In this document: piece after piece, positions 1,322 through 58,600 of the stretch | Numbering within the stretch: position 1 is the first letter of the stretch | How the letters are laid out: every line of letters starts with the position of its first letter | Origin: Paraspadella gotoi | Lineage: Eukaryota > Animalia > Chaetognatha | Reading direction: 5' to 3' | Assembly (NCBI GenBank): GCA_051294375.1 | Contig: CM119268.1 | Location: forward strand, 12,841,770 to 12,905,769 | Length of the DNA stretch: 64,000 nt | Program-made: the position numbers and the translations under genes | Notes under the pieces: model-generated | What the model was told of the DNA's origin: nothing | Databases searched by the model: none | What the model saw: only the letters and a program-made list of their open reading frames with translations

Positions 1322-5479
<4,158 letters not shown>

Positions 5480-8447: not shown

Positions 8448-8660
8448 CTAAGTATTATATGTACTTAAGTTTTAACGTTTTAGACTTCACTCGGGATAAA
8501 ACTTTTAGTCATAAGCTCCGACTGTGATTGTTACGACTTTCTATTATTTTTCTTGTGTGAAATCTGGTCTTCTCTAACCGTATTAAAAATTATAGTGCAG
8601 CTAAATAATTTTATAATCAGCGTACTCTATAATTTTGTAAAGGCCAACCTTGAATTTTTC

Positions 8661-9308
8661 GTCGGATCTGCTTATCGCAGATTCCGACTCGATAATACAC
8701 TTTGTCGGTCCACCCCCACAACAATCTTGTCGGTCATTCGTTAGATCATGTCAGAACATCAAATTATGATAAATTATGCAAAAAAATGATGACTGTCCTT
8801 CCGTCCGTCCCCCCTTAGGAAAAAAATTCAATTACTCAGGATTGGATTGATGGAGTGAGTTGAAATTCTGTGTGTGTGTGTAGGAAACTGTATAATCAAG
8901 CTAGATATAAAGTTTCGATGGAATCGTGCGAGTGGAAATGAGTTTAAATGGAAAAAACAAGTCATATTTACCTGAATTAATATAATTACATTTACTCATA
9001 ATTATTCCAATTATTTATAATTTGATGAATGGATTGAGATGAAACTTTGTGTGTGGGTAGGAAAGTATGTTATTGAGCTGGATATACAGTTTCGATAGAA
9101 TCATACGAGTGGAAAAGTTTAAATATAAAAAACAAAGATCACATTTATAAATTTGAAATCTTTTTAAAGTTTTAAAGTTTCTATCTTTCTCTCATTTTAA
9201 ATGGTTAATTGGCCGATTGATCAGTTGTTTGAATGATTAATTTATAGATTCCTTTGATTTACCGCTAAATTATCGTGAGCAGATTCGACATTGTTTGCTC
9301 AAACTTGT
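8661..9308 (+). mobile_element. Helentron/DINE-1-like non-autonomous element, family A (intergenic)
   Basis: 5' hairpin gtcggatctgc-ttatc-gcagattccgac, an internal (gtcc)n microsatellite and a 3' subterminal repeat/hairpin gagcagattcgacattgtttgctc, flanked by T runs. The same modules occur at ~24856, 36731 and 48470. Confidence 0.7.
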
Positions 9309-16468: not shown

Positions 16469-19400
16469 ATGACAGGGGTGTTAAAAAAAGGGTCAAAAAA
16501 AACCTTTGCCCTTACCCCCAGAAAGAATATTGATAGTTTGACTAAGGAGTGCTCCTATCAAGAGCAAAAACCGTATGTAATCAACATGAACGATGAAATG
16601 CCAAAAAAATATAAAGAATGGAATTTGGAAACGCCTGTTCACAGATTCATTCAGTTGCTACAGGTTAGTACAGGATAAAAATCACTGTTTTATAGCGACT
16701 GACAAGAATGTATTTTAATTTTAATTTAAATTCTAGGAAGTCCTTGAGAAAATTCATAAATTGTCTTCGATTCGTCAAGATTCCGATTTAATGGACATCG
16801 AGAAACAGCTCGCCGACATCCTTCTCGAAATGTCCGCAATCTCTAATGAATCAGCGGATGAGTTGGGTTTCCAATCATCTGTCGATGGCGATCCCAACTT
16901 TTTAGATTTTCAAGTGAAAGAAGAACAAAAAAGCGCCGATTGGGCATCGACGTCAAACACTGAATTCGTCGTGGTTGACCAGTCTTCGATCGGCGATGAG
17001 ATTGTCAATGCACCAATAGAGAAAGACGCTCAAACGCCCGTTAGCCTTATAGACGGTCTCGTTCCGCCCTTGGAAGCTGATACTTCGAAAGGTCAAACGC
17101 CGACCGCAACTTCGTCTTCCTATTCCTGTGACAAATGTGATAGAACCTTCTCGAAGCCTCAATACCTTTCAACTCATTCTCGTAAGATTCACGGTTCCGT
17201 GGTGAAACTCGCTTGTGAAACTTGTGGTAATTCTTTTGCGCGAGTCAAGGATTTAAAAAAACACAAGTCGACCGCTAAATGTCAACCACGCCCAATATTT
17301 TCCTGTCGTCAATGCGGAGAAGCTTTCGCCATTGAGAAATCTTTGGAAGCTCATCGAAAGGTGAGTCGATTCGACGAACACATGAATCTCTCTGAATATG
17401 ATTAGATTGTGATGGTATATTTACACTGCCTCACGTCCAGCATCGTTCAGCCAATCCCATTGGCTCAGAGGGGGAATGCACCATCCCAGGCGTTGCGTTC
17501 CATCCACAGTCCTAACGACGTCCTAGGGTAACCGCGCCAGTGACAGGAGGCGTCACTGAGGGTCGGAAGCCCTCAAAGGCAACAGTGAGATGCCCCATCC
17601 CAATGGCAATGGGCATCACAGGCAACCCGGCTGTTGCCAAAAGATACTTATATTTTCCCTAACGCACTACGAACTTTTCTGTAGCTCTGCAAGGAAGAAT
17701 TTGAAGAAGAATCCGAATCGATAACGGATTCCACTCCACATTGCGAAGCTTCATTTGGCGACATGCAATGCAATGACGCCCTTTCTCTCGCGTTGCAACA
17801 AGCAAATGTAATGCCTGGTCCCTCCACTGCACCGAGCGTCGATTCACCGATTACGGACGTCATGGCTTTATCGGCGATTTCGTCCGGCGAGATTTGGCCA
17901 TTGGCGGTTGGACAGCGTCGTCCCTCCTGCTCCGAGTGTGGGAAGAAGTTTAAAGACGAATCGTCTCTTAACAAGCACAAGGCTTACGTTCACAGCGAGA
18001 AAACCCATTTATGTCCAGGTGAGCGGTCGGGATCTCCATGAATTTTCTTGGTCTTTATGTAAAATATGCTTTTATTAAAATCAGAGTGCGGGAAGCTATT
18101 TAACTTAGAATCAAAAATGCAGCAACATCGCAAAGCTTGTCACGAAAATCAAAAGTTTGCATGTGAGGTGAGTTTTTAGACGAACGTTATGCGACATTTG
18201 AATTAATTCTTACAAAACTGATAACTTAATTTTGTCAGATTTGTGAGAAGGAGTTTTCGACCAAAGTTTATCTTATGAAACATACAAAAGAAGTGCACGA
18301 TGGAAAAAGACCTCGTCACTTATGCACAAGTGAGTTCTCGTATTAAAAAATTTGTCTCAATTTCTTGATTTCTTATATTTATTATATGGATTTAATTATT
18401 AGTATGTGGCAAGGAAGTAATTATTCTGAAATCGCACATGGAATCCGTTCATCTTGGTGTGAAATACCCTTGCGACAAATGTGGAAAGGTAAAACTGTAA
18501 AAAAGAGTCCACCAGTTCTGGTTTTGGTAGGATATTAATGGCAATATTTGGCGTTTTGTCACATATTCAATGAATATGTATATTATTCATCTCATGTAAT
18601 CAATTACAACACAAAGGTCCTAGCGCAAAATAATTAGTTTGTGCCTAATATTTGTAATTTTATATGACCTTTTTAAATTAAAAAGTTTATCAAATAAATC
18701 ATAATTTTAGGAATTTGCTACTCCACCTGGCCTTAAAGTTCATATCTTGACTTTTCATGAAGGGAACAAATATCCGTGTACTCGTAAGTTATTTCATGCT
18801 CTTTTTAGTGAATACGAAATTGGTAATTATAGTTGCTGAAAAATGATTTTACAGTTTGTGGAAAAGTGTTTGGACACAAAGGTTATTTAAAAAATCACGT
18901 TGACATGGTTCACAAAGGGAAAAAGTATCCGTGCAAGGTAGGTTTTTAAAAAAAATGTTGGAAGACTTAGTTTTTAACAGAGAATCTACGACATATGTTC
19001 GCCTCAAGGTGTGTGGAAAAGAATTCAACGACTCTCGATCTCGTCGTCAACACACAGAGCTGACACATCAGGGTAAAAAACATACCTGCAAGCTTTGCAA
19101 CAAAGACTTCACCAGACACGACCACCTTATGCGCCACAAACAAAGCGTTCATGAGGGAAAGAGATTCCCCTGCTCAATTTGCGGCAAAGAATTTTCTCAA
19201 TCGGGTGATTTAAAACGACACGTGGACACTGTACATCAAGGTAGATTCCAGATGTTCAGTAAAATACGATTTATTTTTAGTACTTTCACTTGCGCCTGAC
19301 TCGTTTTTTTTCTCCAGGAAATTCCCGCTCTTCTCATTCTGCCGCACAAACATCTGCCCTGAAGATAACTGAACCATCGGAGCAAGAACCACTGCATAAC

Positions 19401-24701: not shown

Positions 24702-26569
24702 ATGGCTTTAATTGCCGGGTTAGGCGTCGGTATTTTCTTTTTGATCTTCGTGTGGGTCTTTGCTCTCATTCTCTTCGGCTCATTGATCCGGAGCTCGCAG
24801 TTGGCGAGGTAAGCGCTTCTGATTGTAATTAAACTCGCTTAGATTTTAATTTTTCGTTGGAACTGCTTATCGCAAATTCCGACGCTATAGTATAGATTAT
24901 AGACTATAGGGTATAGACTATAGAGTCTATACACTTTGTCGGTTCTTATTAGTAAATCATTTAAATTATTTTAAAAAATTAAATTGTTATAAATTATATA
25001 AAAAATATATGTTTGTTCATCCGTCCTTCCTCCCCATCGTTTTTAATTCTATTTACCTGTAATTGTATAAATGGATTGAAAGAAAATTTTGTATGAGTAA
25101 AACAGTATGTGATTGAACTGTATATAAAGTTTTTGTTTATTTTTATTTATTAAGAATGTTAGATCTACGAACAATAATAAAGTGGTTGATTAATCAGTTG
25201 GTTAAATGATTGATAAATTATTTTATTTAATAAAAATATATTATGATTTTTGATGAATATAATATAAAATTTTAATAAACTTAAATTTATATTTTTAATG
25301 GCTGTATAATTGATTGAATGAATGATTGATGTTTTTATTGATAAAACTGTTATGTTATTTTTTTCTCACACTTTTTTTTCTTTATAATGTCAGATCTGTT
25401 CACTTAAAAATATGCCGTGATAAAATGATTGATAGCTGCTTACTGCTGCTAAATTATCGTTAGCATATGCGATATTGCTTGCTCAAAGCTTAATCAGAAT
25501 ACGACAATATGCAAATGAGATTGAGGAACTCGATCTCATTTGACTTAATCCACAAATTAATCTGCTACAGGGTCTGTCCAATTTCTCTCTATTTCTCCCT
25601 CTTTTTCTCCCTTTTAATTATATATCGCTATCTTTTTTTTCCATTCGTCTAAAAACAAGTTCGCTCTGCAGCGGCTGTCCAGCTTCTCTCTATCTTTTCT
25701 CTCTTCTCTCTCTCACTCATACACGCATTTGTTTGTTTTCTTTACGATGAATGACTATCATCGCATCAATGAATGACTATCATCGCATCAATGAATGACT
25801 ATCATCGCATCAATGAATGACTATCATCGCATCAATGAATGACTATCATCGCATCAATGAATGACTATCATCGCATCAATGAATGACTATCATCGCATCA
25901 ATGAATGACTATCATCGCATCAATGAATGACTATCATCGCATCAATGAATGACTATCATCGCATCAATGAATGACTATCATCGCATCAATGAATGACTAT
26001 CATCGCATCAATGAATGACTATCATCGCATCAATGAATGACTATCATCGCATCAATTGAATGACTATCATCTCTATCATCTATGACTATCATCTCATCAA
26101 TGAATGACTATCATCGCATCAATCTTTTGGTTATCTTCTCATCAATCTTTTGGTTATCATCGCATCAATCTTTTGGTTATCATCGCATCAATCTTTTGGT
26201 TATCATCGCATCAATATTTGGTTTTCATCGAATTCGTTGTCGCATCAATTATTCGGTTTTTTTTTTTTTTTTTTTTTTTCATTAATTTTCTTTGATAGTA
26301 ACGTCTGGCGAATCACTATACTTTTAAGATTTTTTCTTACCAGCTTCTTCGTCGTTTTTGCGGCCGTCCTTATCACGATAATCCTGTTCACTCTCCCGAC
26401 GACACCTCCCTCGACACCATCTGCTTCAGTCGTCGAGATCGTCTATGATTACTCCATCCCTCTTCGAATTTCGCTCGTCGTCTTCGTCGCCGTTTTCGCC
26501 CTCATCGGCTTCGTTCTTTTTTTCGTCGACTACGCCTTCTCGCCTCGTGTCGCCGTCGTGCTGAAATGA
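24702..26569 (+). CDS. TMEM218: Transmembrane protein 218 (ciliary transition zone), two exons 24702-24808 and 26344-26569
   Basis: The spliced product MALIAGLGVGIFFLIFVWVFALILFGSLIRSSQLASFFVVFAAVLITIILFTLP...EIVYDYSIPLRISLVVFVAVFALIGFVLFFVDYAFSP follows the three-TM TMEM218 pattern (GxGxGxFIL..., LLxFP, IVD...R, Y..xP). Confidence 0.82.
24856..25492 (+). mobile_element. Helentron/DINE-like family A copy in the TMEM218 intron
   Basis: Degenerate 5' ctgcttatcgcaaattccgac...cactttgtcgg and 3' aaattatcgttagcatatgcgatattgcttgctcaa, homologous to 8661-9308. Confidence 0.6.
25510..26335 (+). mobile_element. Helentron/DINE-like family B copy containing an amplified minisatellite
   Basis: The 3' end tagtaacgtctggcgaatcactatacttttaagattttt is shared with 32066-32105 and 43293-43330. 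The segment before the array is homologous to 2260-2400. The 5' boundary is approximate. Confidence 0.65.
25748..26055. repeat. Perfect 22-bp minisatellite (atgaatgactatcatcgcatca) x ~14
   Basis: Identical head-to-tail units with no spacers, followed by the variant unit atcttttggttatcatcgcatca. Confidence 0.95.
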
Positions 26570-26611: not shown

Positions 26612-29525
26612 ATGTCGTCGATCGGGTTCATTGCGCTTGGCCTACTACTCTTCGTCCGGTCTTCGTTAACGCAAACGTCCGTGGAACCGACTAGCGGTAG
26701 TGACGCTGTTTCCGTCGAAACGGAAACTACTTCTCAAAATAGCTCCTCCAATCCGGACTTCACCTCAAGTTTGAGGTGAGCGTATTAAGCGTCGCAAAGA
26801 CTTCATAACAAAAGCTGATACGATCTCATTTATTCTGCCCTGCTTTATTTTCTCAACAGACCCACTTCTCCCGATACTGTCGCCGACCTATCCAACACAA
26901 CATCCACAGATGCAGCAACCGTTCTCTCTGTGGCTCCGACCACAGAACCTGAACCAGTTGATGCCTCCGCTGAGACTGAAGCGGGCACATTGGGCGTAAC
27001 TAGTGAAAATCCTTCCTCTGCTTCTAATGTCCAGGAGGTCTCCGATTCTTCTCCCGGCGACACTTCCGTAGTTCCCACCGCCAACAATCCGGTCACTATC
27101 CACCCTACAGACCCGACCGTGGGCCTTTGTACCTGCGACTTGCATTCTTCAACCTGTGATGTTGACTGTTGTTGCGACGCCGATTGCCCTGCTGGCGTCA
27201 AAAGTGACGCCTTTGCAACGTGCCTTGACGTCGTCGCTTCTCACAATGCGAGGCAACAACTCGCTCTGCCTTTTTGTGTCACCGAGGGTGTCGTTTTTAG
27301 AACCAACGATCTTCCCTACAAAACAGAAATCACAAACGACGGGCTCTTTTGCATCAAAGACTGGAATTACGAAGTGAGTGTCCCCTTAGGACTTAGTAAT
27401 ACAGTAGTGACAGTAGTGAGCAGTCAGCACTCATACTAACATTTTATCATTTCCCCAGGAAGAAAAATATTATCCTCAGCGCGATCCATTCTCTACATCT
27501 TCGGATGTGAATGCCGCGATAGAGGCTCAAAGTAAGGGGCGGGACAGCTTTCGAAATCTCCTTTTTTCGACTTCCTCGATCTTCTGGGCGACGAGCAAAG
27601 ACGTTTTAGACCTAAGGTGTTATTCTTCAAGTATGTAAGGCTGCGTCGATGTACTAAGTGACCTTCCTTTTTCATATGAACTCAGCTTAGAAGATGCCAT
27701 CAAAGCTTCAAAGTACAAGACCGACCAACCCATATTGACTCTGGTCAACGCTACTCAGTGCGCCACATTCAACCTTCCTCGGTCGTCGCTGACGTCGAAA
27801 TGCTCGGACGCAGCTCCGTCGCTTTTTCTTCGCGACTACGAAGGTCGCTGTGTGCGAAAGGCCGTGTTGGCAAAAGAATGCAAAACTGGCGGGATCTTTC
27901 ACCCATCCATTTATTACGAAGACCGAAACTTTTTGCCGGGACGTGTCATCAAAAAGTGTGTGGGAGAATGGGGGGGACAAGACTGAACACCTAATGAAAT
28001 GTTAACCTCAACTGCTTATTTTTATAGGAAAAGTAAAAATTATGACGTGACCTCGTGCGCTAAACCTGCCGACTCCGCTGTCGATCCGCCACAAAAAGTT
28101 ATATCAGCGACGGCGAAAAACCCCTGCGACACGAGTTTCGACGCCGGACAAAGAAAATGCGTTGACTCTATCAAGGGCCTCGCTTACACTTTCGTCGTCA
28201 GCCCCACTGGATGGATAGACAAGGTGGGTCATTTTTTAATTTTTCCTCGAAGATGAATCAATGGAGGTTCATGGTTTTGGTCACCAAAAAGGTCGAAGTG
28301 GATTTCGAATGTGGGAACGTCACGGCTGGAAGCGACGGACTCATCGAGCTGGAAATGCGTCATGGAGTTAAATTTATAATCGGTGAAACCAAAGAATCTT
28401 TTCCACGAAGCGGCAATCCTGGCTACATTGCTGGAAAACCCGTTTTAGCCGGACTTTTCAATTCCAGCGGTTCCTCCGCCGATGGTAGTGTGGCAACGGG
28501 AAATATTTTGGTGAGAAAATTTATTTTGTACATTATGGCAACAGCCGGGTTGCCTGTGATGCCCATTGGGATGGGGCATCTCACTGTTGGCTTTGGGGGC
28601 TTCCGACCCTCAGTGACGCCTCCAGTCACTGGCGCGGTTACCCTAGGACGGTCTCGCTTTGCCAACGCAGAGGGAAGTCGTTAGGACTGTGGATGGAACA
28701 CTACGCCTGGGATGGTGTGTTCCCCCTCTGAGCCAATGGATTTGGCTGAACAATGGTGGATGTGAGGCAGTGTGAATATACCACCGCAACATGGTCATGA
28801 AATATCGCACCTCCCTTGCTTTTCATCTCAATTGTTCGTCACTTTGCCAACCCGCCGTACGGGCGTTTTACCCGTCTTTAATTAACATAGGATTAATTTT
28901 AAATTAGATATCCGCGGATCCCACGTCTTGGCTGACGGTACCGCGACCAGGTTATACCGGCACCTGCGACGCTCGACACCCGGTAGCCTTCAACAAAAAC
29001 TTTGCGCAATTGTGTCGAGTGACACCATCGGTTCCGACATGCGATGCCCTGCAAAAAGCTGCACGTGGCGCTGCATTAGGCGTTATCGCCGTCGATCGCG
29101 TCGGCGTCTTTGGCAATGCCGATCCCGGCGTCCTCGGCGACTGGATCCCAATTCGCGAGGAGACGGTGGCGTCATCGTTCTCCTCTTCCGGCGCGTGCGA
29201 GAAAGTCGTCCTAAGCGTCGCCGTCTCCGTACTCTACGCCGACGTGGGTTCCGTGTTCGACCCTCAACCCAAGATCCTCGGTGTCAGACGGCAACTTTTT
29301 ACTGGCTCCGCGGAACCAACGTCGTCGTTCTTCCTTAGCTCAAGCATCGCCTTTTACGACGTCACCCAAGATGCGGAGAACCTTTACAATCCGGCCCCGG
29401 TCGTTTCGGCCACGGTTCCGGCAGACTTTTTCTATCCGCTATTGCGCGGCGGGGGTGGCAAACCGGAATCCTTTCATTTTTGGTTGCTCGTGACGATCGC
29501 ATCTTTTGTGCTGCGAATCCTTTAA
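26612..29525 (+). CDS. TCTN: Tectonic family protein (DUF1619), ciliary transition zone
   Basis: Signal peptide MSSIGFIALGLLLF, a mucin-like S/T tract, CTCDLHSSTCDVDCCCDADC, PRSGNPGYIAGKPVLAG, VGVFGNADP...DWIPI and a C-terminal VPADFFYP followed by a hydrophobic tail. Confidence 0.93.
28536..28789 (-). mobile_element. Structured ~250-nt dispersed element, copy 2 (full length), antisense in tectonic intron 28511-~28907
   Basis: GC-rich island in an AT-rich intron. It is homologous to 17407-17639, consists of a series of hairpins and contains the twister motif. Confidence 0.85.
28586..28666 (-). ncRNA. Type-P5 (circularly permuted) twister ribozyme candidate; predicted cleavage U/A between 28640 and 28639
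   Basis: The minus strand reads GTTGGC AAA GCGA GA CCG TCCTAGGG TAA CCGC GC CAGTGAC TGGAGGC GTCACTG AGG GTCGGAAGC CCCC AAA GCCAAC. This gives P5 GTTGGC/GCCAAC, P2 GCG/CGC, L1 GA + UAA, pseudoknot T1 CCG/CGG, T2 GC/GC, a P3 hairpin and an L4 GU-NNN-AAGC loop. Imperfections are a very short P1 and one A-C mismatch each in P2 and P4. Confidence 0.8.
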
Positions 29526-35798: not shown

Positions 35799-38700
35799 AT
35801 GGATTCAACAACTACTGCTCGGCGTTTGATCGATTTTATGGTCAACGACGCAACGTCTTCATCGCACGGCACATCGCCAAGGTTGTTCGACGTTGAGGGC
35901 AACGGAGACGTTGATATGAGACAGGATTCGCCGCCTTCTACCTCCTCTCTCGCGCGTTACCTTGTTTCGCGCTATTCCCGTATAGCCCCTAACAGTCCAC
36001 AGATGGGCACTGAGGCCACGAGTGATCCGAGACGCGGACCGCTGAGCGATTTTTTCAGTCAACTAATGACAAACTACCGTTACACCTCGACCGCGCCCCT
36101 CGATAGCGACGAACTCTTTGCTCCTCGCGCCGATCTCTCCGCCGCAGCAGGCGAAAGCACTTCCGCCTCTGGCGCCGCCCTCAACGACTCAGCTTCCCGG
36201 GCTCCCTTGAATCCTCGCTCAAACACTTCGTCCGACATCCCCGTCGATCTCAGCAGGATCATGAACGAGGATGAGCAAGCTTGGGCCGGACCGCGATTGG
36301 TTGAGGGCTCGATCATTAGCGAGTTGTTGGATAATTTCGCTTGCACCGTCTGTTTCGCAACGGCCGTCAACCCTCGTCTTTGCCCCAAATGTGCTAAGTT
36401 TTTTTGCCGCAACTGTCTTCAGCAAACCTACCGTTCTTCACCCGGGGGTCGGAGGTGTCCTCATTGTCGAGCTAATCTTACATTGGAAGAGGTGTGTTGT
36501 TCGACTTTTTAAAAGCGACTACGTAAAGCTTTGCGCTGCTAATCATTTGTTGTGCGTCGTTGTCTGCTTCGTTGTCGGCGGTCGTCCCTTTTTTTGCACA
36601 TTTCTTCTTCCATATGCAAAATTCGAAAAAAAATTTAATGTCTCCGGGATTTATATTGTGTATCTTGCTTTTGGGACCCAAGGTTCTGGTCTATAACAAA
36701 GGGAAAATTATTAGATGTGTGTAGTTTTTAGTCGGATCTGCTTATAAGCAGATTCCGACTCAATAATCCACTTTGTCGGTCCCTCGGTCCGCGCCTCCCC
36801 CCCCAATATTGTCGGTCATTCACCTAGATCATATCAGAACATCAAATTATGATAAATTATGTGAAAAAATGTTTGTCTGTCTGTCCATCAGTCCCACCCA
36901 TTAGCATTAAACTCCAATTACTCTAGATTGGATGGATGGATTGGAATGAAATTTTGTGTGTGGAAAAGTGTGTGATATAAAGTTTCGATGGAAAAAACAG
37001 AAGTCACATTCACTTGAATCTTTTTACTTATGTGAACTCATAATAATAATTGGATAAATGGATTGAGATAAAATTCTGCGTGTGTGGGAAAGTAAGTTAT
37101 TGATCTGGGTATACGTTAAGGCGGGCCAAAATTGATCACTTTTTATTATTAAGAGTTCTGTAATATAAAATTCATTTGTCTATCATATACTTAATCAATA
37201 TTTAATATAACTTTTTTAACTAGCGAAGCACAGTATAACATTAAAGCATTTAAATATTTATTAATGCATAGGCAATAAAAAAATTTTTATAAATTTTTTT
37301 TTTTTAAGAACGGATTCAGATAGCCCATAAGTATAATGAGTTTTTCAATATTTCGATGATAAGTGGGTCAAATAATGGAAAAACTCTTTAAAATCATCAT
37401 CACCATCGTCGTACCATAATTTTTATAGTTTTTTATTAATTTTAAGCAATAAAACAAAAGAAATTTGAAATCTTGTAGTAATATTTTTTATTTATTTTTT
37501 TAATCTCTACCCGAATCCGTTTTTAATTCTGATTTTGAAAAAAACTTTAAATGCTTCTATCTTATTAACTATATATAAAATCTTAATTTTTTTTTTAATT
37601 TCGTCTTCCCATGGGGATCCTCTAACGTTATTTATTTACAGAACTCTTAGTTTTTACTTTATTCCGCCCTAGTATACGTGGTGGGTCTGGGTATAAAGTT
37701 TAGATGGAATCGTGCGAGTGGAAATGGGTTTTAATGGAAAAAACAATAGTCACATTTACTTAAATGTTTTTATCTCTCTTAACAATCTCAGATCTACCCA
37801 TAACAACTCTCTTTTAAATACTCTCAACGGAAATTTTTTTTCGAATCCGACTATCAAACTTTATATAAACGGCCCTAGGAAAAATTCCGATAAAAAATAG
37901 ATGTAAAAACGCTCGATTCTGATAGCATTGCGTCTGAAAAGCTCGCATTTTTTTTCCTTGTCAAATAATCAACATTTTGATGGCAAACGAGCCAGAAAAA
38001 ATAAACTTCTTCTGGACGAAAACAATTTTTATCTATGATTTTATATATAAATGAAAGGAGTTTTTTCCCTTCAAAACAATATAAACGCGATTGAGGTATG
38101 TTCCAGTTCAAAAAATGACTTCAAATGCAGGAATCCTCTGGCTAATTGTCTGAAGGGCTCGCAATTTTTTTTTTTTTTTTAATTTTATTTAGTTATTTCA
38201 ATATGATATGATCAGGGTAAAGTAAATTAGTCCACTTTGGTGAAATTGAGATCGGAATTCTAAGAGTTTTCAACCAGAAGTCAGATTCCGCAAAAATCTT
38301 TTATGGCGAAAATCTTCCAAAGAAGGGGTAGATTTTCCAAAGATTTTTATTAATGCTTTATATATTCATGGTCGGATTTATTTGAAACGTAACAATAGCT
38401 CTAATTACCATCATTTTACATTGGCCGGTATAAGAATATATTAAAAAACTCCGGCTATTTTAGTCAGAGTTGAGTCCTACCATACAAGTTGAAAAAATGA
38501 TGCAAGTTGAAAAAAATTTTAATTAAAAATTAAGCAAAAATAAACAAAATTTTAAAAAATTATTTTATTGACAAAATAATTTTTAAAATTATGAAATATT
38601 GTCGGAATAACCGTTCAGTTTAATCCCTCGAAAGCGATTTACATGAATTTGCTCAACCACTGGTTGATTGACTGATTTATGAATTGATTTGTTATGTTAT

Positions 38701-40943
38701 GATCTGTTATGATCGATTAATATCACTAATTGAAAGAATTAATGCGACTTATCTGATTAGCTGATTATCACTAAATTATCGTAGGCAGATCCAACATCGT
38801 TTGCTCACTCGTTATATATATATATATTGTTATATGCAAATGAGATTAAGGAATTCTTTTCTTATTTTTCAAATTTTTTTTATTATTTATTTTTTAATAA
38901 ACGCGTCGTAACACCGTGAAATTGCATGTTCTTGTTTTCTCGTTTTTAGTTGCGCCGCGAATCCCTTTTGGGTCGGTCGGTCGGTCTTACTTACGTTTTA
39001 CCTGTCCATAGCTTAGAAAGTTAATGTGCATATGCATCATTTTTGTAAATTCACGTGATCACTTTAGTTGATAATTGGCTGACTCCTAAGTTGTGAGTAA
39101 ATGCTTCTTGTGCCTATCTCTACCGAGAGAATTTTGTTAATTTTGTTTGACCGTTTTACAGTATGTTCGCGTTTCGTGGGCGTCAGAGCTCAGTGGAAAG
39201 CTGGAGTCGGTTCAATCAACCGACAAATGTCCACAGCACGGACAAAAACAACTCTGCAACTTTTGCGTTGACTGCCAGGTTACAATTTGCGTAGATTGTT
39301 GGACGGAAACGCATCAAGATCACAAGATTAGGTTGTTTTTTCTTCTCAAAATCCCCAACATTATTATCCTTCGAGAAGACTAATTATATAAATTTATCGT
39401 AGTCCCTTGGAGGCCGTATACAATCGTGTACATGCAAAAGTGTCTGAAGCAGTGGGCCCTCTTAAGGAGAAGAGGGCCCAACTAGTGACTTTGCTGCAAC
39501 CGCTTCGAACCGATATGAAGCATCTGAATCAGGTCAAGACAGAGGCCGAGCGAATGATGAAAGACATGATGAGAGACATGCACGCGTCTTTCTACAACTC
39601 ATTACACAGCGTCGATATTCCAAAAGTTAGTTCACTGATTTTCACAATTATTTGGTATACAACGGTTTATGAAACTAAGGCGAATTCTATTACTTTCAGG
39701 AGTTTAATTTTTTACGATCCTGTATAGACCGTCTTGATAAAAACATCGACGCCATGAACTCGGCAATTAGTAATAAAGCGATGAACAGAATCGTTGACAA
39801 ACGGGAGGCATTGGAAAATGTTCATGCTCTGTCCGAGGTAAAAATTCATTTAAAACTATAAATTAATGAGTTATGTATATTGTATATCTATCTATCAATG
39901 GTCCATGAATAATGAGTAATGTTGTAAATTTCCATTGTAGACCGAAGAGTCAAATATGGAAAAAATTAAAAACTGCTACAAACCGGCCAAACTCGATCCT
40001 CTGCAATTCCTCAAAGGATGGACTCCTGTTTGGGATATTCGGGAGAAAGTCTTTATACGAGATTGCAAAAGGTGTTTGACATATTTTTATATATTTGTTT
40101 TGAATCATCTTATTATTTTTTTTTTCATACCAATTTATCAGGACGTTCTACGAATCAAAAAAAAGTCGCCCTCGACGAATTGTTGCTAAATTTGAAGTGA
40201 ACGACATTATATGGAGCGTCGGTTGGTCTTTTCATCTTTTTCTGTCTTGTTATTTTTCCTAACATCTGGATAATTTTTTCAGGAACAGTTTCCTTAGAAG
40301 ACGAGGTTGAAATTGAGTTTCCCGACTCCTTAAGAATTTTCGTTGTCATGAACGGTTAGCTTTGATTACTAGAATTCGTTTCTCAATCTTGTCTTTAAGT
40401 TTACCACGAATAAGTTGCTTAGCCAGGTCGTCCGAGTTTGAAGGATTACGAATTTGCGATCGAGTCGTTGCATGAGAGCGACTCGGTCTCCCCACCACGC
40501 CATTCCGTAATTCGTCGGGACTCATTCCAGGAGAACGAGGAGATATTTTTTGCTCTCGAAAACCCGAAGAGGTACAATCACAATGCATTTAGAATGTTGA
40601 TGTTATTAGTGTCCTTCCGACTTTTTTTTATTTAAGCTGGGTGAATGAAAAGCGCGACATGTCCTTCAACGTGATGATTCGTCCTTTGACATATCGTCAA
40701 AAGTCGCTCGACCAGGCAGTGTATATTCAAAAGTTGGTCGACGAAAGGACGGCGAGAAACAACGCCGCCAATCGTGCCGACAACTGCCCCGTTCGAACTT
40801 CATTGTCTGAGAGCCTTGAAGCCGTGTCATCTTCAGCGGGAAATTCCAAATCCGCCCAATCGGGACGGTTGCCTTGGACTGAAAACGAAAAAGAGAAAGT
40901 CGAAACGAGAAGCTTCAGAAGAAAAATAAGGCGTCTTGAATAA
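35799..40943 (+). CDS. TRIM37-like E3 ligase (RING, B-box, coiled coil, degenerate MATH-like region)
   Basis: RING FACTVCF...PRLCPKCAKFFCRNCL...CPHCRANL resembles TRIM37. B-box CPQHGQKQLCNFCVDCQVTICVDC...HQDH. C-terminal IRPLTYRQKSLDQAVYIQKL resembles the TRIM37 post-MATH motif. Confidence 0.75.
36731..38812 (+). mobile_element. Helentron/DINE-like family A copy (expanded by nested insertions) in a TRIM37-like intron
   Basis: 5' gtcggatctgcttataagcagattccgac...cactttgtcgg...tagatcatatcagaacatcaaattatgataaattatg and 3' aaattatcgtaggcagatccaacatcgtttgctc, as in 8661-9308. Confidence 0.75.
37117..37671. mobile_element. hAT-type MITE nested in the family A element
   Basis: Termini taaggcgg...ccgcccta, subterminal inverted taagagttctgtaa/ttacagaactctta and an 8-bp target-site duplication GTATACGT at 37109-37116 and 37672-37679. 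Confidence 0.8.
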
Positions 40944-42282: not shown

Positions 42283-44814
42283 ATGTTTGTTCTTGCTCAT
42301 ATGACGGACGTTGTTCGAACTTACCCCAATGACTTTGGGATGAAGCTAAATGACGCCATAACGGACGAATTGAATCGGTAAGAAAAGGAATCGGTCAAAT
42401 TCGAAAACTGATGTCGCCAAAACGATCGTCACTCGTTTTCAATCGATTTTCTTAGGAAACTTGGCAACAAGGTTGTTTATAATGTTGGGCTCTGTTTGCT
42501 TCTTTACGATACGTTGAAAATCGAGGAAAGGTAACGTCGACACTGTGTGGATCATTATTCAATATTCATTGTTTCTTGCCAAATAAACGCAATTGGGTTT
42601 TTTTTCTTATCTCGCCCATCATGGGCGAGATATTAGTTCGCTTCTGCTTCTTTGTGACCGTCATCGTTGCCGTTACGTTTTTTTTATAATTGGATATTGT
42701 AAAAATGTGTAATTAGAGGAAGCTAAAATATAATACTGCAATATGCAAATTAGTATATAGTACTATATTATAATTTGCATAATACATATTGCATTAAGTT
42801 ATAATGAAAAAGAAATTCGTATAAAAAATATTTGAATCAATATGAAACATGTGATTTTATTATCATTAATAATAACATATAAAAATAAATATATTTTCTT
42901 AATTTCGCAATAAAAAGAGATTAAATACAAAATAAAAATGCATATTTTTATAACTTCTAATTGTAAACAATTATAATAATTTTTAATTGTAAATAATTAT
43001 AATATTTTTTTATCTTTTTTTTATTTTTTTTTTTATTTACGATGAATGATTCATCGTGCCGATTAATGATTATAATAGCATAATTTGGTTATCATCGCTT
43101 CAATATTTGGTTATCATTATATTATTTTTTGGTTATCATCGTATCAATTTTTGGTTATCATCGCATCAATATTTGGTTATCATTTCATCAATAATCAATT
43201 ACAATCACATCCATAAATTACTATTATATCAATCAATTATTATTATCGCATCAATCGTTTTGTTTTCCGGATTTTTTCATTAATTTTTTTTATAGTAACG
43301 TCTGGCGAGATCACTATACTTTTAAGAATTTTTTTTTTAGTTTTATCTTTCCAGGGGATGGGTCCAGTCACACCAAAGTCTCTTTTAGATTCATTGTCTT
43401 TCGGCCCTTCATCGACGAGGTTCTCGTGGGCGTCGTTAAATCCTGCAACAGCGAAGGTTTGATTTAAAATAAGTTTGTTTTTTTTTAGTTTGGTTTGATT
43501 TCATATTAAGTATTAACTCTACTTTTAATTTGTTATTGCTGCATTTTAACCCCAAAATTTCACCCGGCATGAAAGCATAATGAAAGTATCCGCAGTATAT
43601 ATATAAGTATATATTATATAAGCTACTATATATATACTATATAAGCTACTACCAGGCCCAAACGATAAAATTGTCGAGTGACTGACAGAATAGTAGATTG
43701 ATAAATGATAAATTGACAGAGACTATCGATAATAACGTGGATGCATACATTTAAATTGATCTGCATTGTACATATCCTGATATGCTTGAAAAGCTGGAAC
43801 CTTCGATCAGAAAAATGAGATAAAAATGTATCAAAGACTTTTACCCCCCTAAAAAAAATTATGCCTCTTATCATCAAAGTCAAAGCTAACTAGAATTCTT
43901 TGCTAGTTACTTGACTCGTACCCTTGCTGTTTATGTAAAAAGATTCGATTAAGATACAGTTAAGTACAAAACTAATGGTCATGATATACAAACATAAAAG
44001 TATAAGAAAATTCTGCCTCCAGCTATTTTTTATCATTAACAGAAGTTTTAACTTATTTAAAGTGAGAAATAACATTTATTAACATATTAAAAATCAACTT
44101 ATTCTTAATATAAAAAAAGTGCTGGACTCCAAACACTGTCACCAAACTTGGTCAAAGCTAAGTATATATTTTTAGCTGCGAATTTTTTTTTAAGCAAAGT
44201 TTCATATTTGAGAAAGATTTATAGTTTAAAAATTAATACCCTGAAATATTCCATATAATTTAATCTATTGTGCACTATTTAAATCTACTTTCGTCAATTA
44301 AAAATTGCCTACTTTTATTCAGTTAACTACTAAGTAAACCAAAAAAATTGTCTATTAGTATTACCTACTTAAGAAAATATCTTTACTTAGGCGTCTTCGT
44401 TTCCATGGACTTTTTTGACGACATCTTTATCCCGGGAAACCGTCTTCAAGCTCCCTCCAAGTTTGACGAAAATGAGCAGCTATGGTTTTGGGAATATGAA
44501 AACGATGAGGGCAAACATCCTCTTTACATGGAACTAGGTGAACGGTCCATCTTTAAGATGAGAAGTTTCTTTTGCCTCGATGTTCCTGGTTTTTGCAACT
44601 TTTGTTTCCGATCGAAGGGGAAAAGATTCGATTTCGAGTCATCTCGGAAACCTTCGTCGACACTTCGCCCACAGGACCAACGGAAACATCGGTTTCTGAA
44701 ACTGCGAGCGACTCCGCTTCCACGGAAGCGAAAAAGGCTGATTGCAAAGTTCCTTACTCTATCACGGCGTCCGTTAGCGAACCCGGGCTCGGTTTATTGT
44801 CGTGGTGGACTTAG
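42283..44814 (+). CDS. POLR3H: DNA-directed RNA polymerase III subunit RPC8/RPC25
   Basis: [12 protein letters not shown]...[49 protein letters not shown] and GLGLLSWW. Confidence 0.96.
42608..43330 (+). mobile_element. Helentron/DINE-like family B copy in a POLR3H intron
   Basis: 5' hairpin tatctcgccca-tca-tgggcgagata, internal ttggttatcatcgcatcaat units and 3' tagtaacgtctggcgagatcactatacttttaagaattt. Confidence 0.75.
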
Positions 44815-48100: not shown

Positions 48101-49644
48101 CATCCCTCTCCTCATTACATTATAAAAGAATATAAAGAATATAATTAAATGTAATATATAGTGAAATATATTAAATTTTTATATTTATTTTTAAATTTAA
48201 TCCAATATAGGGTAGTGCGGGGTAATTCAGAACAGGGGTTTTCCGGAACACTGACATATATAATGAAAAAAAATAATTGTGTACTAATCTTTAATAACTT
48301 TTTTTGGTTCATTAAATATTTCACCAACTTGACAGCAGAAATTGCAAAGTTGCTAGTCAAATTTTGTAGTCGTTTTAAAGTAGTCGTTTTAAAGCCTCTG
48401 TCACAGTCATATTTGACGTTATATGATTATGGAATATTATTATATGATAGACGAGACTACTAATTTTTAGTCGGATCTGCTTGTCAGCAGATCCCGACTT
48501 TATAATTCACTTTGTCGATCCTCATTCGCTTACATCATGTCAGAACATCGAATTATGATAAATTATGCAAAAAAACCGATGTCCGTCCGTCTGTCCGTCC
48601 GTCCCACCTTAGCAAAAAAAACCTGTTTCACTAATTGATTATGCTTCTTTTTCTTTTTATATTAAATGTAAATGCAAGATGTAGTAATAAAATCAAATAA
48701 TTAATCAGTTAATTAATCAATTTATTAATAAATAATGAATTAATCGGTCAATTAATAAATCAATTAATTATTCAATCAATCAATTTATTTAGTTATCTAT
48801 TAAGTATTTATTCAATCAATCAATTTATTTATAAATTAATTAATTATTTAATAAAATTATTATATAAAACGGAACACTTCGCAATTTTTAAAAAAAATGC
48901 TACCCCAAGGGGCAGCAGGATAAAAACGAATACATCAATCTGAAGCGGGGACACTTTCCTAGATATATTACCTGAAAATTTTTTTTGTCAAATATATTTA
49001 CTATGCGAAAAACTTGATTACTTACAAAAGTGTTCCGAATTTCCCCGCACTACCCTATTAAAACAAATAATCTTGAAATTTTTCATATGCAAAAGAGGAA
49101 AAAAAACTTGTTTAGGTTCGTCGTGCACCGTCCGTACTTTGTGTACACCTCAAGAGGTTTCGCTGGGCCAATTTCTGTCGACAAAAGATCGACACTTTCG
49201 TGGATTTTCCCATTCGCGTAAGCCTCTCTTAAGAGCGAATAGTAATATTTTTTAACCTTAAATAACAAGGATTCTTTTTTTTTTTTCGGCTAGGGCCTCG
49301 ACCTCAGTGATTACATGTTACATAATTTGCACGGAACGCGAGGATCAGGACGCGATAATGTCTACGATCTCGCCGCTGTTATTGTTCACCACGGGTTAGT
49401 TTTTTTAACGAAAAGAAAAACGAGCTCATGCACGTATATAAATGTTTGTAGATTGTGACTTATGTTTTTTTCGTTAATTATCCAAAGTTCCGGAGTCGGA
49501 TGCGGTCACTACACGGCCTACGCTACGCACGAAGGACGATGGTTCCACTTTAACGATTCCACTGTTTCTCCGACCGACGACGCGACCGTCGCCAAGTGCA
49601 AAGCCTATATCCTCTTTTACATCAAGCGAGAAGAAAAAGATTGA
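45107..49644 (+). CDS. USP3: Ubiquitin carboxyl-terminal hydrolase 3
   Basis: ZnF-UBP (MDCPH; [23 protein letters not shown]), Cys box [45 protein letters not shown] and His box [28 protein letters not shown]. Confidence 0.93.
48210..49055. mobile_element. TA-flanked MITE with ~25-bp TIRs, containing a nested family A fragment (~48470-48620)
   Basis: Left ta|gggtagtgcggggtaattcagaaca matches right tgttccgaatttccccgcactaccc|ta with 2 mismatches. Confidence 0.8.
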
Positions 49645-55611: not shown

Positions 55612-58600
55612 ATGAGCGAGCCGAGGGCTCACCCGGTTGGAGTGCCCGAAGGGCGGGATGCTGGGCCATTCGAGCCTCAAGGTCTCGAGAATATTGCGGA
55701 AGAAGAGAACCTCGGACGGTAAATATCTCGTAATTATAATTAATGTAAAGGAGTCAAAAATAAAAATTGTCTATTCATTTAATAAATAAGCTATCTTTCC
55801 CCTGACAGGCTATCAAGATAATAAAATAAGAGATTAAAAATTTCAGGCCCGAGGCGATCATCGGCTCTCGACCGACGAGACGGAGATCCTTTCGACGAAA
55901 TTCTTCCTATTTACGCGGAGATAGCAGGAGACGACGGTGAGGAGTAAAAAACGTGACGATATTACTTGAATTTCATTTTACACAGTTTTAATTCGTTTCA
56001 AATTCGTACTTAGGTCGGACCGGAGAGATTCTGATGTCGGTTCTTCTGAGGACGATGAGGCGGGAACCTCCACTCTTTATAAGAATTTCATGAGAGTAAG
56101 AAAGCGGTTTGAAAAATTGACTTTTAAATTTTAAAAAGTCTTTAGAAGTTTGTGTAAATTCTTCAGCCTTTGATTGAGCACGAAAAATCAACACGAGATC
56201 TCGCTGTCAACGGAGCCGTCGAGGTAAACGAGAAATTCTATCATGTCGTTCTTCCCCACCAACAAAGTGAGCATCTGCTCTGCAAACGCGGACATCTCCC
56301 GAGAGAAAAACGAAAGAGGAAACCTCCTCTTCCCGCCTTCTCTTCCCCCTCCCGTACGCTACCTCAGTACGCCGACACGAGACAGAATCACTTCTTCTGT
56401 TCGCGCTTTTGCGCTCAGTCTCCCGGCTTTTTACGAAAATATTTTTTGATTATTTTTTGTTGAATAATTTTGCATATTTTTCGTTCCTTTTTTTTGGAGT
56501 TCAGAATACAGATATTCTTCGACACGTGGCTTTGAAGTTTTCTCTTCACGGCCGCCATCTTTTTTCGTCTTCGTTGTGCTGGCTTCAGAGGGAAGAGCCT
56601 TGACTCGGCCCTTTCGCTTGCCCTCGACGCACCCTGCGCGGCTGCGGAGGGAAGAGCCGCGACTCGGCCCTCTCGTTTGCCCTCGGCGCTTAGTACGGCT
56701 GCAGGGGGAAGAACCTTGTTTTCGGCCCCCTTGTTTGTCCAGTGCTCTCCGTTTTTTGGACTGAGGCGCGTGTTTTTCAACTCGACTACCCTCATGTCTC
56801 TTCCGCCGCCGCCTTCGCCGCCGCCTCCACCATCAGCCATTCCGGGCTTTTCTGGTCAGGCCGAAGTCATGCCCCTTCAGATGGAGGCAGTTCTCCAAAT
56901 TAGAAACGCTTTTTCTAGCGTTCGTCGCGAATTTAAGGGTTTCCCGCTCGTCTCGTTCCGAATTGGAGAGTCTTCGGCGGTGAGTTCTTTCTTTTCGTTT
57001 TTTTTTTCGCCTTTTTTTGGCGTACATTCGGCGTACAGAGGGGTTTTCTCCTGTGCCCCACCTAACTCGACTTTGTTGTTTGTTTTTTGTCGGGCCTTCG
57101 CCTGGTCTTGTTACAGGCTCACTTTGTTGGTGGGGAAGAACGACATGATAGAATTTATGGTTCCAAATGGAACCGGGATTCTTCATGGTTCTTCCCCACC
57201 AACAACCACCCACCGTCCACCCCTGGCACCACCGGTGGTGGAGGGTGGCTCAGGCTCGCTTGTCTTGTTTGGTGGGGTGTTTTTGGGGTTCTTTTTTTGA
57301 GACTGTCATTTTTCAATGATTTCTCTTTTTTTTCCATGTACGTTTTCTTCATGGTTCTTGGACGCCTCTGTTCGCCATTTCGCCGTTCTTCGTCGGTCTT
57401 CGTTGTACGCCAGCGACTTGGAGTCTTCGCGTTCTTTGGCGGCCTCTTCGGCGGCGGATCGGCCTTCACGCTCCGAGCGGGTGACTGCGTCATGCCTTCC
57501 TCGTCGAGCCCCATCTGCGCAAGTCGACGACGACGCCTCCGTTTCCGGATCAGAGGAGGGTTCCTCCTCTGAAGAGTCTGCTGCGGGGTTGGACAACTTC
57601 TTGTCTCGTCGTGCTTCTGTACAGCCTTCGGAGTGGGTCCTACAGCAGTGGAGGGTTTTGCGCAGAGTTGGCCAGGACGACGTCTTTTTACCGTCGTGGG
57701 ACGTACTTTCCGCCTATACGCGTTTCCGGCGCTGGTCGGATGTCTCTTCGCCGGCGGATTTTCGTCCTCCTGCTCAAAAGAGTTGCCTTGCCGCTCAGTT
57801 GACGCCGTTCGGAAGGACTCCAAGACGACGCGCGCTTTCAAGGCTTTTGAGCGCATCATGAGGGACGCCGGAGCGTCCGCTCATGCTGTCCTTCTTGTCG
57901 CTGACGCTCTCCGCCTCATGGTTGAGCCCTTCGCTCGGAGGGGCCCGGTGCAGTGGACGCAGGCCACCTTGACGATCTTGCCAAGCCCCTTAGAGACGCC
58001 TCGTCGGGTTTGGCGGCGATTTTTGGTTCGGCCCTCTCCGAGTCTCGGCGCTTAGTTGTCGACGCTGCCCCTTCGGATTTCAAGACAGTCTGTCCAGTTC
58101 TCCGCCCTCCACGTCGTTCTTTTTCGGAGACCGCTCCCCAGACGTCACTCAAGCGTTCCATTCTTCGCTTCTCCGCTCGGGGCGCCTCACTATTGCGCCT
58201 GTTCTGTTAGCCGCAAGCATGGGCGTGGCAGTCCGCGTAATCCCGCTCGCCGTCCCTACTGGCCTCGCAAGTTTTCGCCGCCTCCCAAGCGTAGGGGCGG
58301 GACTCCAGGGACGTCAAGGACGCCAACTGATCGCCCGACAGCTCTTTCGGCCGTTGCTTCGTCCGGCCGTCAGTTTCTCCAGACCCGGTTTTCGTCCATG
58401 GACTGGTTCTTTTTGCGGTTTCTCATCCCCCCTTCTACGACGTCCGGTCAAGTGGGCGTGGCACATCACGGAAGTCTTCGCGGGATTCCCCCCTCTTGGT
58501 TTGCTTGGTTACGAGTGATTCTGTCTCGTGTCGGCGTACTGAGGTAGCGTACGGGAGGGGGAAGAGAAGGCGGGAAGAGGAGGTTTCCTCTTTCGTTTTT

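Follow-up and report, generated by a model that had tools for sequence, protein, structure and literature searches.

Solo long terminal repeats with a predicted twister ribozyme in the chaetognath Paraspadella gotoi, and a possible LTR retrozyme as their source

We analyzed a stretch of 64,000 nucleotides (nt) from the genome of the chaetognath Paraspadella gotoi (contig CM119268.1, assembly GCA_051294375.1), hereafter called the window, which harbors two copies of a short, structured, non-coding repeat: copy 1 on the + strand and copy 2 on the - strand. These repeats are almost certainly solo long terminal repeats (LTRs) with CsRN1-type signals, and the core in the middle of the LTR very probably derives from a twister ribozyme. 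On balance, we think that an abundant element depending on CsRN1-type Ty3/gypsy retrotransposons left both solo LTRs, and that the parent is likely an LTR retrozyme, short and non-coding, that would spread via circular RNA. Within this reading, we infer cleavage, the circular RNA, and non-autonomy.

The original prediction described two copies with common endpoints, separated by 11 kb and in opposite orientation, and all of this was borne out. Aligning the termini refined the ends to 17408-17641 (+) and 28788-28534 (-). Copy 1 is a solo LTR of 234 nt with TGT...AAA termini, and copy 2 one of 255 nt, 57% GC, with TGC...ATA termini; in public sequencing runs, the depth changes stepwise at either end of it. 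They are identical at 212 of 228 aligned positions, apart from one 27-nt and one 6-nt indel: 27 nt that precede the twister in copy 2 are missing from copy 1, in which the loop of a hairpin that competes with the ribozyme (see below) contains a 6-nt duplication. A search with nhmmer found no third copy within the window. The copies had been thought to lack a target-site duplication (TSD), but an exact one of 4 base pairs (bp) flanks both of them: AGAT at 17404-17407 and 17642-17645 (+) around copy 1, and ATGT, read on the element strand (-), at 28789-28792 on the 5' side and 28530-28533 on the 3' side of copy 2. The chance of such a match is around 0.004 per copy given the flank composition and ends fixed beforehand, and the match is less striking here because the ends were placed while looking. 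The ends, previously said to have no terminal inverted repeats (TIRs), are short imperfect inverted termini of the LTR type. The hexamer TGTTGC had been taken as a terminal redundancy of copy 2. Its occurrence at the 5' end (28791) is explained by the target site abutting the LTR start, as it consists of the last letters of the TSD and the first of the LTR. Copy 1 carries TGTTGC at its 3' end only, and 17 different 6-mers recur in the 321 nt around copy 2. The motif AATAAA is absent from both strands of both copies, and ATTAAA from both strands of copy 2. We also considered a miniature inverted-repeat transposable element (MITE) or another DNA transposon, and rejected it because the TIR has at most about 8 imperfect nt and there is also a primer-binding site (PBS).

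To study the family beyond the window, we used public sequencing runs, of which 14 were listed (9 of organism A) and 8 of the 14 were examined; all data are assembled contigs. One of them, X1, is a possible source of the window and hence not independent. Contigs matching the element numbered 7,469 in X8, 2,657 in X1, and 412 in X9, and X13 and X14, with no contig on the element, are uninformative. In X8, the summed contig depth, which is not a copy number, is 1.5-2.1 million on the element versus 267-307 in the flanks, with a sharp drop at the 3' end. Since depth ratios differ around five-fold between X8 and X1, we used junction counts as a floor. The 3' end (28532-28534) leads into long unrelated AT-rich flanks in at least 237 contigs of X8 and at least 188 of X1 (agreement 0.40-0.44), and at least 61 and at least 64 junction contigs come from two 5'-end classes; these counts rest on the best-supported loose ends, and 610 further loose ends exist. 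Given these distinct junction contigs in X8 and X1, solo insertions must number in the hundreds at least, and likely in the thousands. Run X9 is RNA-like, as it covers exons without intron flanks, and has more summed depth on the 3' part of the LTR. We did not use it as evidence of cleavage because the depth step lies off the predicted cut and contigs cannot show levels or ends. Exact-pattern scans for the element gave no match in viral contigs and none in metagenome contigs, and a scan with a gapped twister pattern returned two loci, both chance matches within unrelated sequence.

The sequence that follows the LTR in full copies was found in two contigs from independent studies, one of 276 nt in X10 (organism B) and one of 506 nt in X12 (a biofilm metagenome). 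Both have the same sequence after the LTR end: two nt, then TGGTGAGCCC. In X10, TGGTGAGCCC matches a transfer RNA (tRNA) for tryptophan at the final seven bases of its gene (plus CCA) and over 14 nt of its T arm, with a score reached by none of 20,000 shuffles. The tRNA-Trp used in this comparison is of the eukaryote type, called by ARAGORN in a locus (L066) that may not be the host's. The PBS is in two parts, with around 10 nt matching the 3' end of tRNA-Trp, 14 nt matching the T arm, and a middle that differs. We assign it to tRNA-Trp because of the match to the acceptor end, as the 14-nt part alone is not Trp-specific (15 viral loci include 2 Trp and 2 Gly). The X10 contig has one difference in 192 nt from copy 2 (28533-28724), in addition to the PBS, and no host exons were found in this run; its match under the label of organism B may reflect contamination, a close relative, or horizontal transfer.

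The X12 contig has an even depth of 12.8 and consists of 240 nt, the whole LTR, and 20 nt. The 240-nt side comprises what remains of the LTR start (TGT) and another 233 nt, in which five purines (GGGGA) located three nt before the LTR form a short purine tract, seen in this single contig. This order, i.e., a flank on the side of the polypurine tract (PPT), the LTR, and the PBS, is the expected assembly product of an LTR-internal-LTR element. The usual assembler overlap is 30 nt. If the contig is a closed unit with an overlap of this length, the unit would have around 476 nt, of which around 224 nt internal. The predicted RNA unit is then the LTR and the internal region, with a length of around 0.48 kb provided that the 506-nt contig represents a collapsed unit, and not the monomer of around 248 nt that had been proposed. 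A TGT start is found in X12 and in loose ends of X8 and X1, and the TGC of copy 2 is one change away from it. For comparison, CsRN1-like Ty3/gypsy elements have a 4-bp TSD, LTR ends of the form TGT...AAA or TGT...ATA, and a tRNA-Trp PBS, TGGTGA(G/C)CCCG(T/A), according to the available part of PMC2582038 (papers cited here and below were available in part). Since the element combines solo LTRs flanked by 4-bp TSDs with CsRN1-type termini, a tRNA-Trp PBS, and a purine tract, we predict a Ty3/gypsy element as the helper, instead of the RTE or Penelope element put forward earlier. Hence, the original notion of a retrozyme-like family stands as far as its non-coding, ribozyme-bearing, and mobile character and its fixed ends are concerned, while its class changes from a non-LTR monomer to a solo LTR.

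The twister identity given to the ribozyme in the original prediction is probably right, as a twister-like core is found in the middle of the unit. The predicted ribozyme, of type P1, spans 28573-28643 (-) in copy 2, with a predicted cut between 28640 and 28639, and, with the same core, 17526-17596 (+) in copy 1, with a predicted cut between 17529 and 17530. Its parts in copy 2 are a 3-bp P1, UAA, P2, GC, a 7-bp P3, a 3-bp P4, L4, P2', GA, T1', and P1'; this order, assigned by hand, matches the table of Schistosoma mansoni twisters (PMC8501958). The predicted pairs include two G-C in the pseudoknot T2, one G-C and one G.U in the pseudoknot T1, three of the four in P2 (C9.A44 being a mismatch), and three each in P1 and P4. 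A descriptor of this order, which we wrote after the sequence had been seen, matches copies 1 and 2 only in the window. Among shuffled sequences, neither any of the 20,000 made from copy 2 nor any of the 20 made from the rest of the window gave a match. The twister positions U6-A7-A8, G13, C14, G30, C31, G45, A46, and G48 are all present, in the right order and spacing. G45 is the general base of the twister (PMC6154101). In the Osa-1-4 twister, G13, G30, A46, and G48 are the only positions intolerant to every substitution, while 33 of 69 single mutants keep an activity above 0.8 and mismatches in helices are often tolerated (PMC5113685). The four intolerant positions are kept in both copies, and position 40 is an A, not the harmful C. 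Among the 19 places that vary at 3% or more in X8, 15 are in the 5' half of the element, two in the P3 loop, two just outside P1 and P4, and none in the core. The X12 variant has a shortened P3 loop and an otherwise unchanged twister. Rfam scans of the window gave no match at the gathering threshold and no hammerhead match. Judging from the sequence, the ribozyme is reasonably likely to be active in the parent element.

The hairpins reported earlier were found, although not all in both copies: AGCCAA/TTGGCT, GATGCCC/GGGCATC, and GGCAAC/GTTGCC are in both, and CAGAGGG/CCCTCTG is in copy 2 only. The reported compensatory change (GGAATGC/GCGTTCC versus GGAACAC/GTGTTCC) is real, and comprises one two-sided change and one change from G-C to G-U. 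The copies fold modestly better than dinucleotide shuffles, with z-scores of -2.64 (4 of 200 shuffles as good) and -1.74 (8 of 200). The hairpin GATGCCC/GGGCATC (28558-28580, -) is a rival of the ribozyme, as it sequesters G45-A46, T1, and the 3' strand of P1, and its pairs have probabilities of 0.46-1.0 in the ViennaRNA ensemble of the whole LTR. The 3'-terminal hairpin GGCAAC/GTTGCC (28537-28554, -) adjoins the LTR end, after which the PBS follows in the full copies of X10 and X12.

We propose that the parent would move as follows. The full LTR-internal-LTR element would be transcribed across both LTRs, and the twister in each LTR would cut the transcript at U/A (28640/28639 in copy 2), probably co-transcriptionally, before the rival hairpin forms. 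This hairpin is complete around 20 nt past the core, which leads us to the conjecture that it could permit co-transcriptional cutting and block it in the finished circle. A host ligase would circularize the released RNA of around 0.48 kb, with a 5'-OH, a 2',3'-cyclic phosphate, and no R repeat, after which the rival hairpins would hold the re-formed ribozyme off. In the Tornado system, twister ends are reportedly joined by RtcB. The reverse transcriptase (RT) of a CsRN1-clade gypsy element would be primed by tRNA-Trp at the PBS and copy over the ligation junction, so that no strand transfer would be needed. Finally, the gypsy integrase would insert the complementary DNA (cDNA), be it full, multimeric, or a solo LTR, with a 4-bp TSD. 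Solo LTRs would arise from recombination between LTRs or directly from LTR-length cDNA.

Both copies are located in short introns of host genes. Copy 1 lies in sense in a GT..AG intron of 324 nt (17361-17684, +) of a C2H2 zinc-finger gene, and copy 2 in antisense in a GT..AG intron of 397 nt (28511-28907, +) of a tectonic gene, with flanking exons in frame in both cases. Run X9 covers the tectonic exons and not the intron flanks. The predicted twister of copy 1 is on the strand of the host pre-mRNA and its core is intact. Given this orientation in a short intron, an active twister would cut the zinc-finger pre-mRNA.

Several observations weigh against the circular-RNA retrozyme. Neither cleavage nor an RNA end or a circle was seen in the data, all of which are contigs. 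The match of copy 2 to the twister-P1 family of Rfam (RF03160) is partial, covering model positions 11-56 of 68 with 15.2 bits versus a gathering threshold of 67.2 (E-value 0.48-4.5), and copy 1 gave no Rfam twister match. The helices are imperfect, with a C.A and a G.U in P2, a G.U in T1, and only 3 bp each in P1 and P4. In the whole-LTR ensemble of ViennaRNA, which cannot score pseudoknots, P1, P2, and P4 are near zero and the rival helices are favored. The core is not alone in varying little, since the 60 nt 3' of it are just as invariant, with no variable place at 28534-28594 in X8, and one contig of X11, of depth 2, alters the outer G of P1. The purine tract before the LTR is short. Finally, only 30 letters are visible per loose end, and a long autonomous element that was broken in assembly could also have yielded the 506-nt contig.

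This last point bears on a different explanation, in which the solo LTRs come from a gypsy element of the CsRN1 clade that is autonomous and whose LTR twister trims RNA ends or aids translation. Every cis-signal that we see is CsRN1-like, the internal region is visible for just 30 letters per side, and twister cleavage in Perere-3 was reported to be sufficient for downstream translation (PMC8501958). Yet, X12 has a single contig of 506 nt at an even depth of 12.8, in which the LTR is joined to internal sequence on either side, and no longer contig; the LTR has 57% GC and no AATAAA, and cuts in both LTRs would strip the transcript of its cap, tail, and R repeat. We regard this explanation as unlikely. 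A low probability also applies to an ordinary terminal-repeat retrotransposon in miniature (TRIM) with an inert twister relic, moving via a linear RNA of the normal kind, which has R repeats. TRIMs with 4-bp TSDs, a PBS of the gypsy type (tRNA-Trp among others), and numerous solo LTRs have been described in animals (PMC10886601), and the deviations in the core, the sub-threshold Rfam score, and the rival folds fit with a relic. An inert twister is harder to reconcile with all mutation-intolerant positions being kept in both copies, and with no change in the core reaching 3% in X8 versus 15 variable places in the 5' half; the helix mismatches are of a kind often tolerated in twisters. The model initially put forward, a terminally redundant circle of around 248 nt inserted at a fixed breakpoint by a LINE (long interspersed nuclear element) or Penelope enzyme, would account for the fixed ends, the ribozyme in the middle of the unit, and the dominance of solo copies. 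It is largely refuted and very improbable by now: the redundancy is missing in copy 1 and explained by the TSD, the 4-bp TSD, LTR termini, PBS, and purine tract indicate an integrase, no go-back joint was among the 15 joints listed out of 67, and animal non-LTR retrozymes are tandem hammerhead repeats that lack LTR, PBS, and PPT (PMC7761336).

The closest counterparts of the proposed retrozyme are the LTR retrozymes of plants (PMC4918200). Like these, the element has a predicted ribozyme in the LTR, a 4-bp TSD, a PBS and a putative PPT of the Ty3/gypsy type, many solo LTRs, and a highly structured non-coding LTR. Plant retrozymes have a type III hammerhead, a tRNA-Met PBS, and LTRs of 300-400 nt, whereas the element described here has an animal host, a predicted twister, a tRNA-Trp PBS, and an LTR of around 250 nt. 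Cleavage and circles have been demonstrated for the plant elements (PMC4918200), whereas ours is known from its sequence. PwRn1 and AgCR of the CsRN1 clade (PMC2582038) resemble the element in TSD, termini, and tRNA-Trp PBS. It differs from them by the absence of AATAAA, by having no gag-pol seen, and by the second PBS match of 14 nt to the T arm, and the available part of that source describes no ribozyme in them. Six LTR models of animal Metaviridae, including CsRN1, carry AATAAA (PMC3601003). The animal TRIMs Helenus and Ajax (PMC10886601) are also short, gypsy-dependent, non-autonomous LTR elements of invertebrates, with a 4-bp TSD (Helenus), an excess of solo LTRs, and a captured structured-RNA module in the LTR. 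However, this module is a promoter of RNA polymerase III (Pol III), derived from a tRNA or 5S, and not a ribozyme.

As regards the ribozyme, the T-variant twisters of the RTE LINE Perere-3 of S. mansoni (PMC8501958) are likewise type-P1 twisters with a P3 in an animal retroelement, and share with the element the order P1, UAA, P2, GC, P3, P4, and L4. Yet, the cut in Perere-3 is the 5' end of a non-LTR element, beside the TSD, whereas the predicted cut is here 149 nt inside an LTR. In the same study, RT domains of the LTR type lie downstream of 1.6% of the T-variants, at no more than 10 kb, and the available part does not describe them further (PMC8501958). Animal non-LTR retrozymes (PMC7761336; bioRxiv 10.64898/2026.07.22.740005) are also small, non-coding, ribozyme-bearing repeats, but they consist of tandem units with type I hammerheads, are linked to Penelope, and have no LTR, PBS, or PPT, whereas our element occurs as dispersed solo copies with LTR ends and a PBS.

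Part of the LTR resembles 5S ribosomal RNA (rRNA). The stretch of 33 nt (28680-28712, +, antisense to the twister, in copy 2; 17484-17516, -, on the strand opposite to the twister, in copy 1) is weakly similar to positions ~71-101 of 5S rRNA, which hold the intermediate element and box C. Depending on which of 12 comparisons is made, 0-35 of 3,000 shuffles were as good. There was no Rfam 5S match and no box A in the stretch. In a 5S pattern scan, all 14 of the 84 loci that we examined were 5S rRNA. A Pol III promoter derived from 5S, as in TRIMp3 elements (Cassandra/Ajax), which conserve box A, the intermediate element, and box C in the LTR, was rejected, because the similarity is antisense, partial, and post hoc, has five changes in X12, and is lost in an X11/X12 variant. 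Eukaryote-type 5S rDNA arrays are present in records of bacterial metagenome-assembled genomes (L003-L086), which we attribute to host contamination, and L066 links 5S to a tRNA-Trp gene.

The window as a whole is animal DNA with short introns, and contains zinc-finger, tectonic, Nop52, USP-type, and hydrolase exons. Of two protein searches, one gave no match and the other gave 10 relatives at 84-88%. Searches within it found no tRNA gene, no recognizable RT or integrase motif, and no PBS above chance (two one-mismatch matches versus 2.4 expected). It contains other repeats. A GC-rich element of around 2.5 kb (56227-58692) has a perfect inverted repeat of 94 nt (56299-56392 and 58514-58607), a stretch in its interior (57117-57205) that is complementary to the two termini, and two long open reading frames without Pfam match. 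Its combination of inverted terminal repeats and an internal complementary region is what we take to be a layout reminiscent of DIRS-type elements. Minisatellite arrays of 22-23 nt form a dispersed family (2357-2839, 25681-26224, 43059-43266, and 59878-60035), share unique flanks at 26262, 32031, and 43259, and are possibly borne by Helitrons or MITEs. Other dispersed repeats (8651-9301, 36722-38807, and 48461-48606), together with a pair of inverted repeats of around 100 nt (2002-2104 and 3229-3329) around the first minisatellite, suggest non-autonomous DNA transposons.

LTR retrozymes are described as primarily from plants and with type III hammerheads (PMC7761336; bioRxiv 10.64898/2026.07.22.740005; PMC5680766; PMC6765202; PMC9695139). 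Neither a twister within an LTR nor an LTR retrozyme from an animal turned up in a full-text literature search that left most subscription papers, supplements, and Repbase/Dfam outside its scope, and the element could be catalogued in the latter as an unnamed LTR. In its fullest form, which we offer tentatively, our proposal is that no LTR retrozyme would have been known from an animal before this one, and no LTR element built around a twister: a viroid-like circle of around 0.48 kb, excised by the twister, masking itself by rival hairpins, primed at a two-part tRNA-Trp PBS, and integrated by CsRN1 gypsy elements, whose LTR-length cDNAs would seed thousands of solo LTRs. A predicted variant twister present in hundreds to thousands of copies falls below the Rfam threshold, and the only role described for twisters in retroelements, in the available parts of the literature cited here, concerns the 5' end of a LINE (PMC8501958). 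If true, a gypsy-type LTR bearing a twister in an animal would break the pairings of plants with LTR hammerheads and of animals with Penelope hammerheads. The class of ribozyme would then be interchangeable, and plants and animals would each have invented, from different ribozymes, the same kind of circular RNA that parasitizes gypsy elements. The family would also provide a high-copy system to test circular templates for the reverse transcriptases of LTR elements without strand transfer, as well as the direct insertion of solo LTRs.

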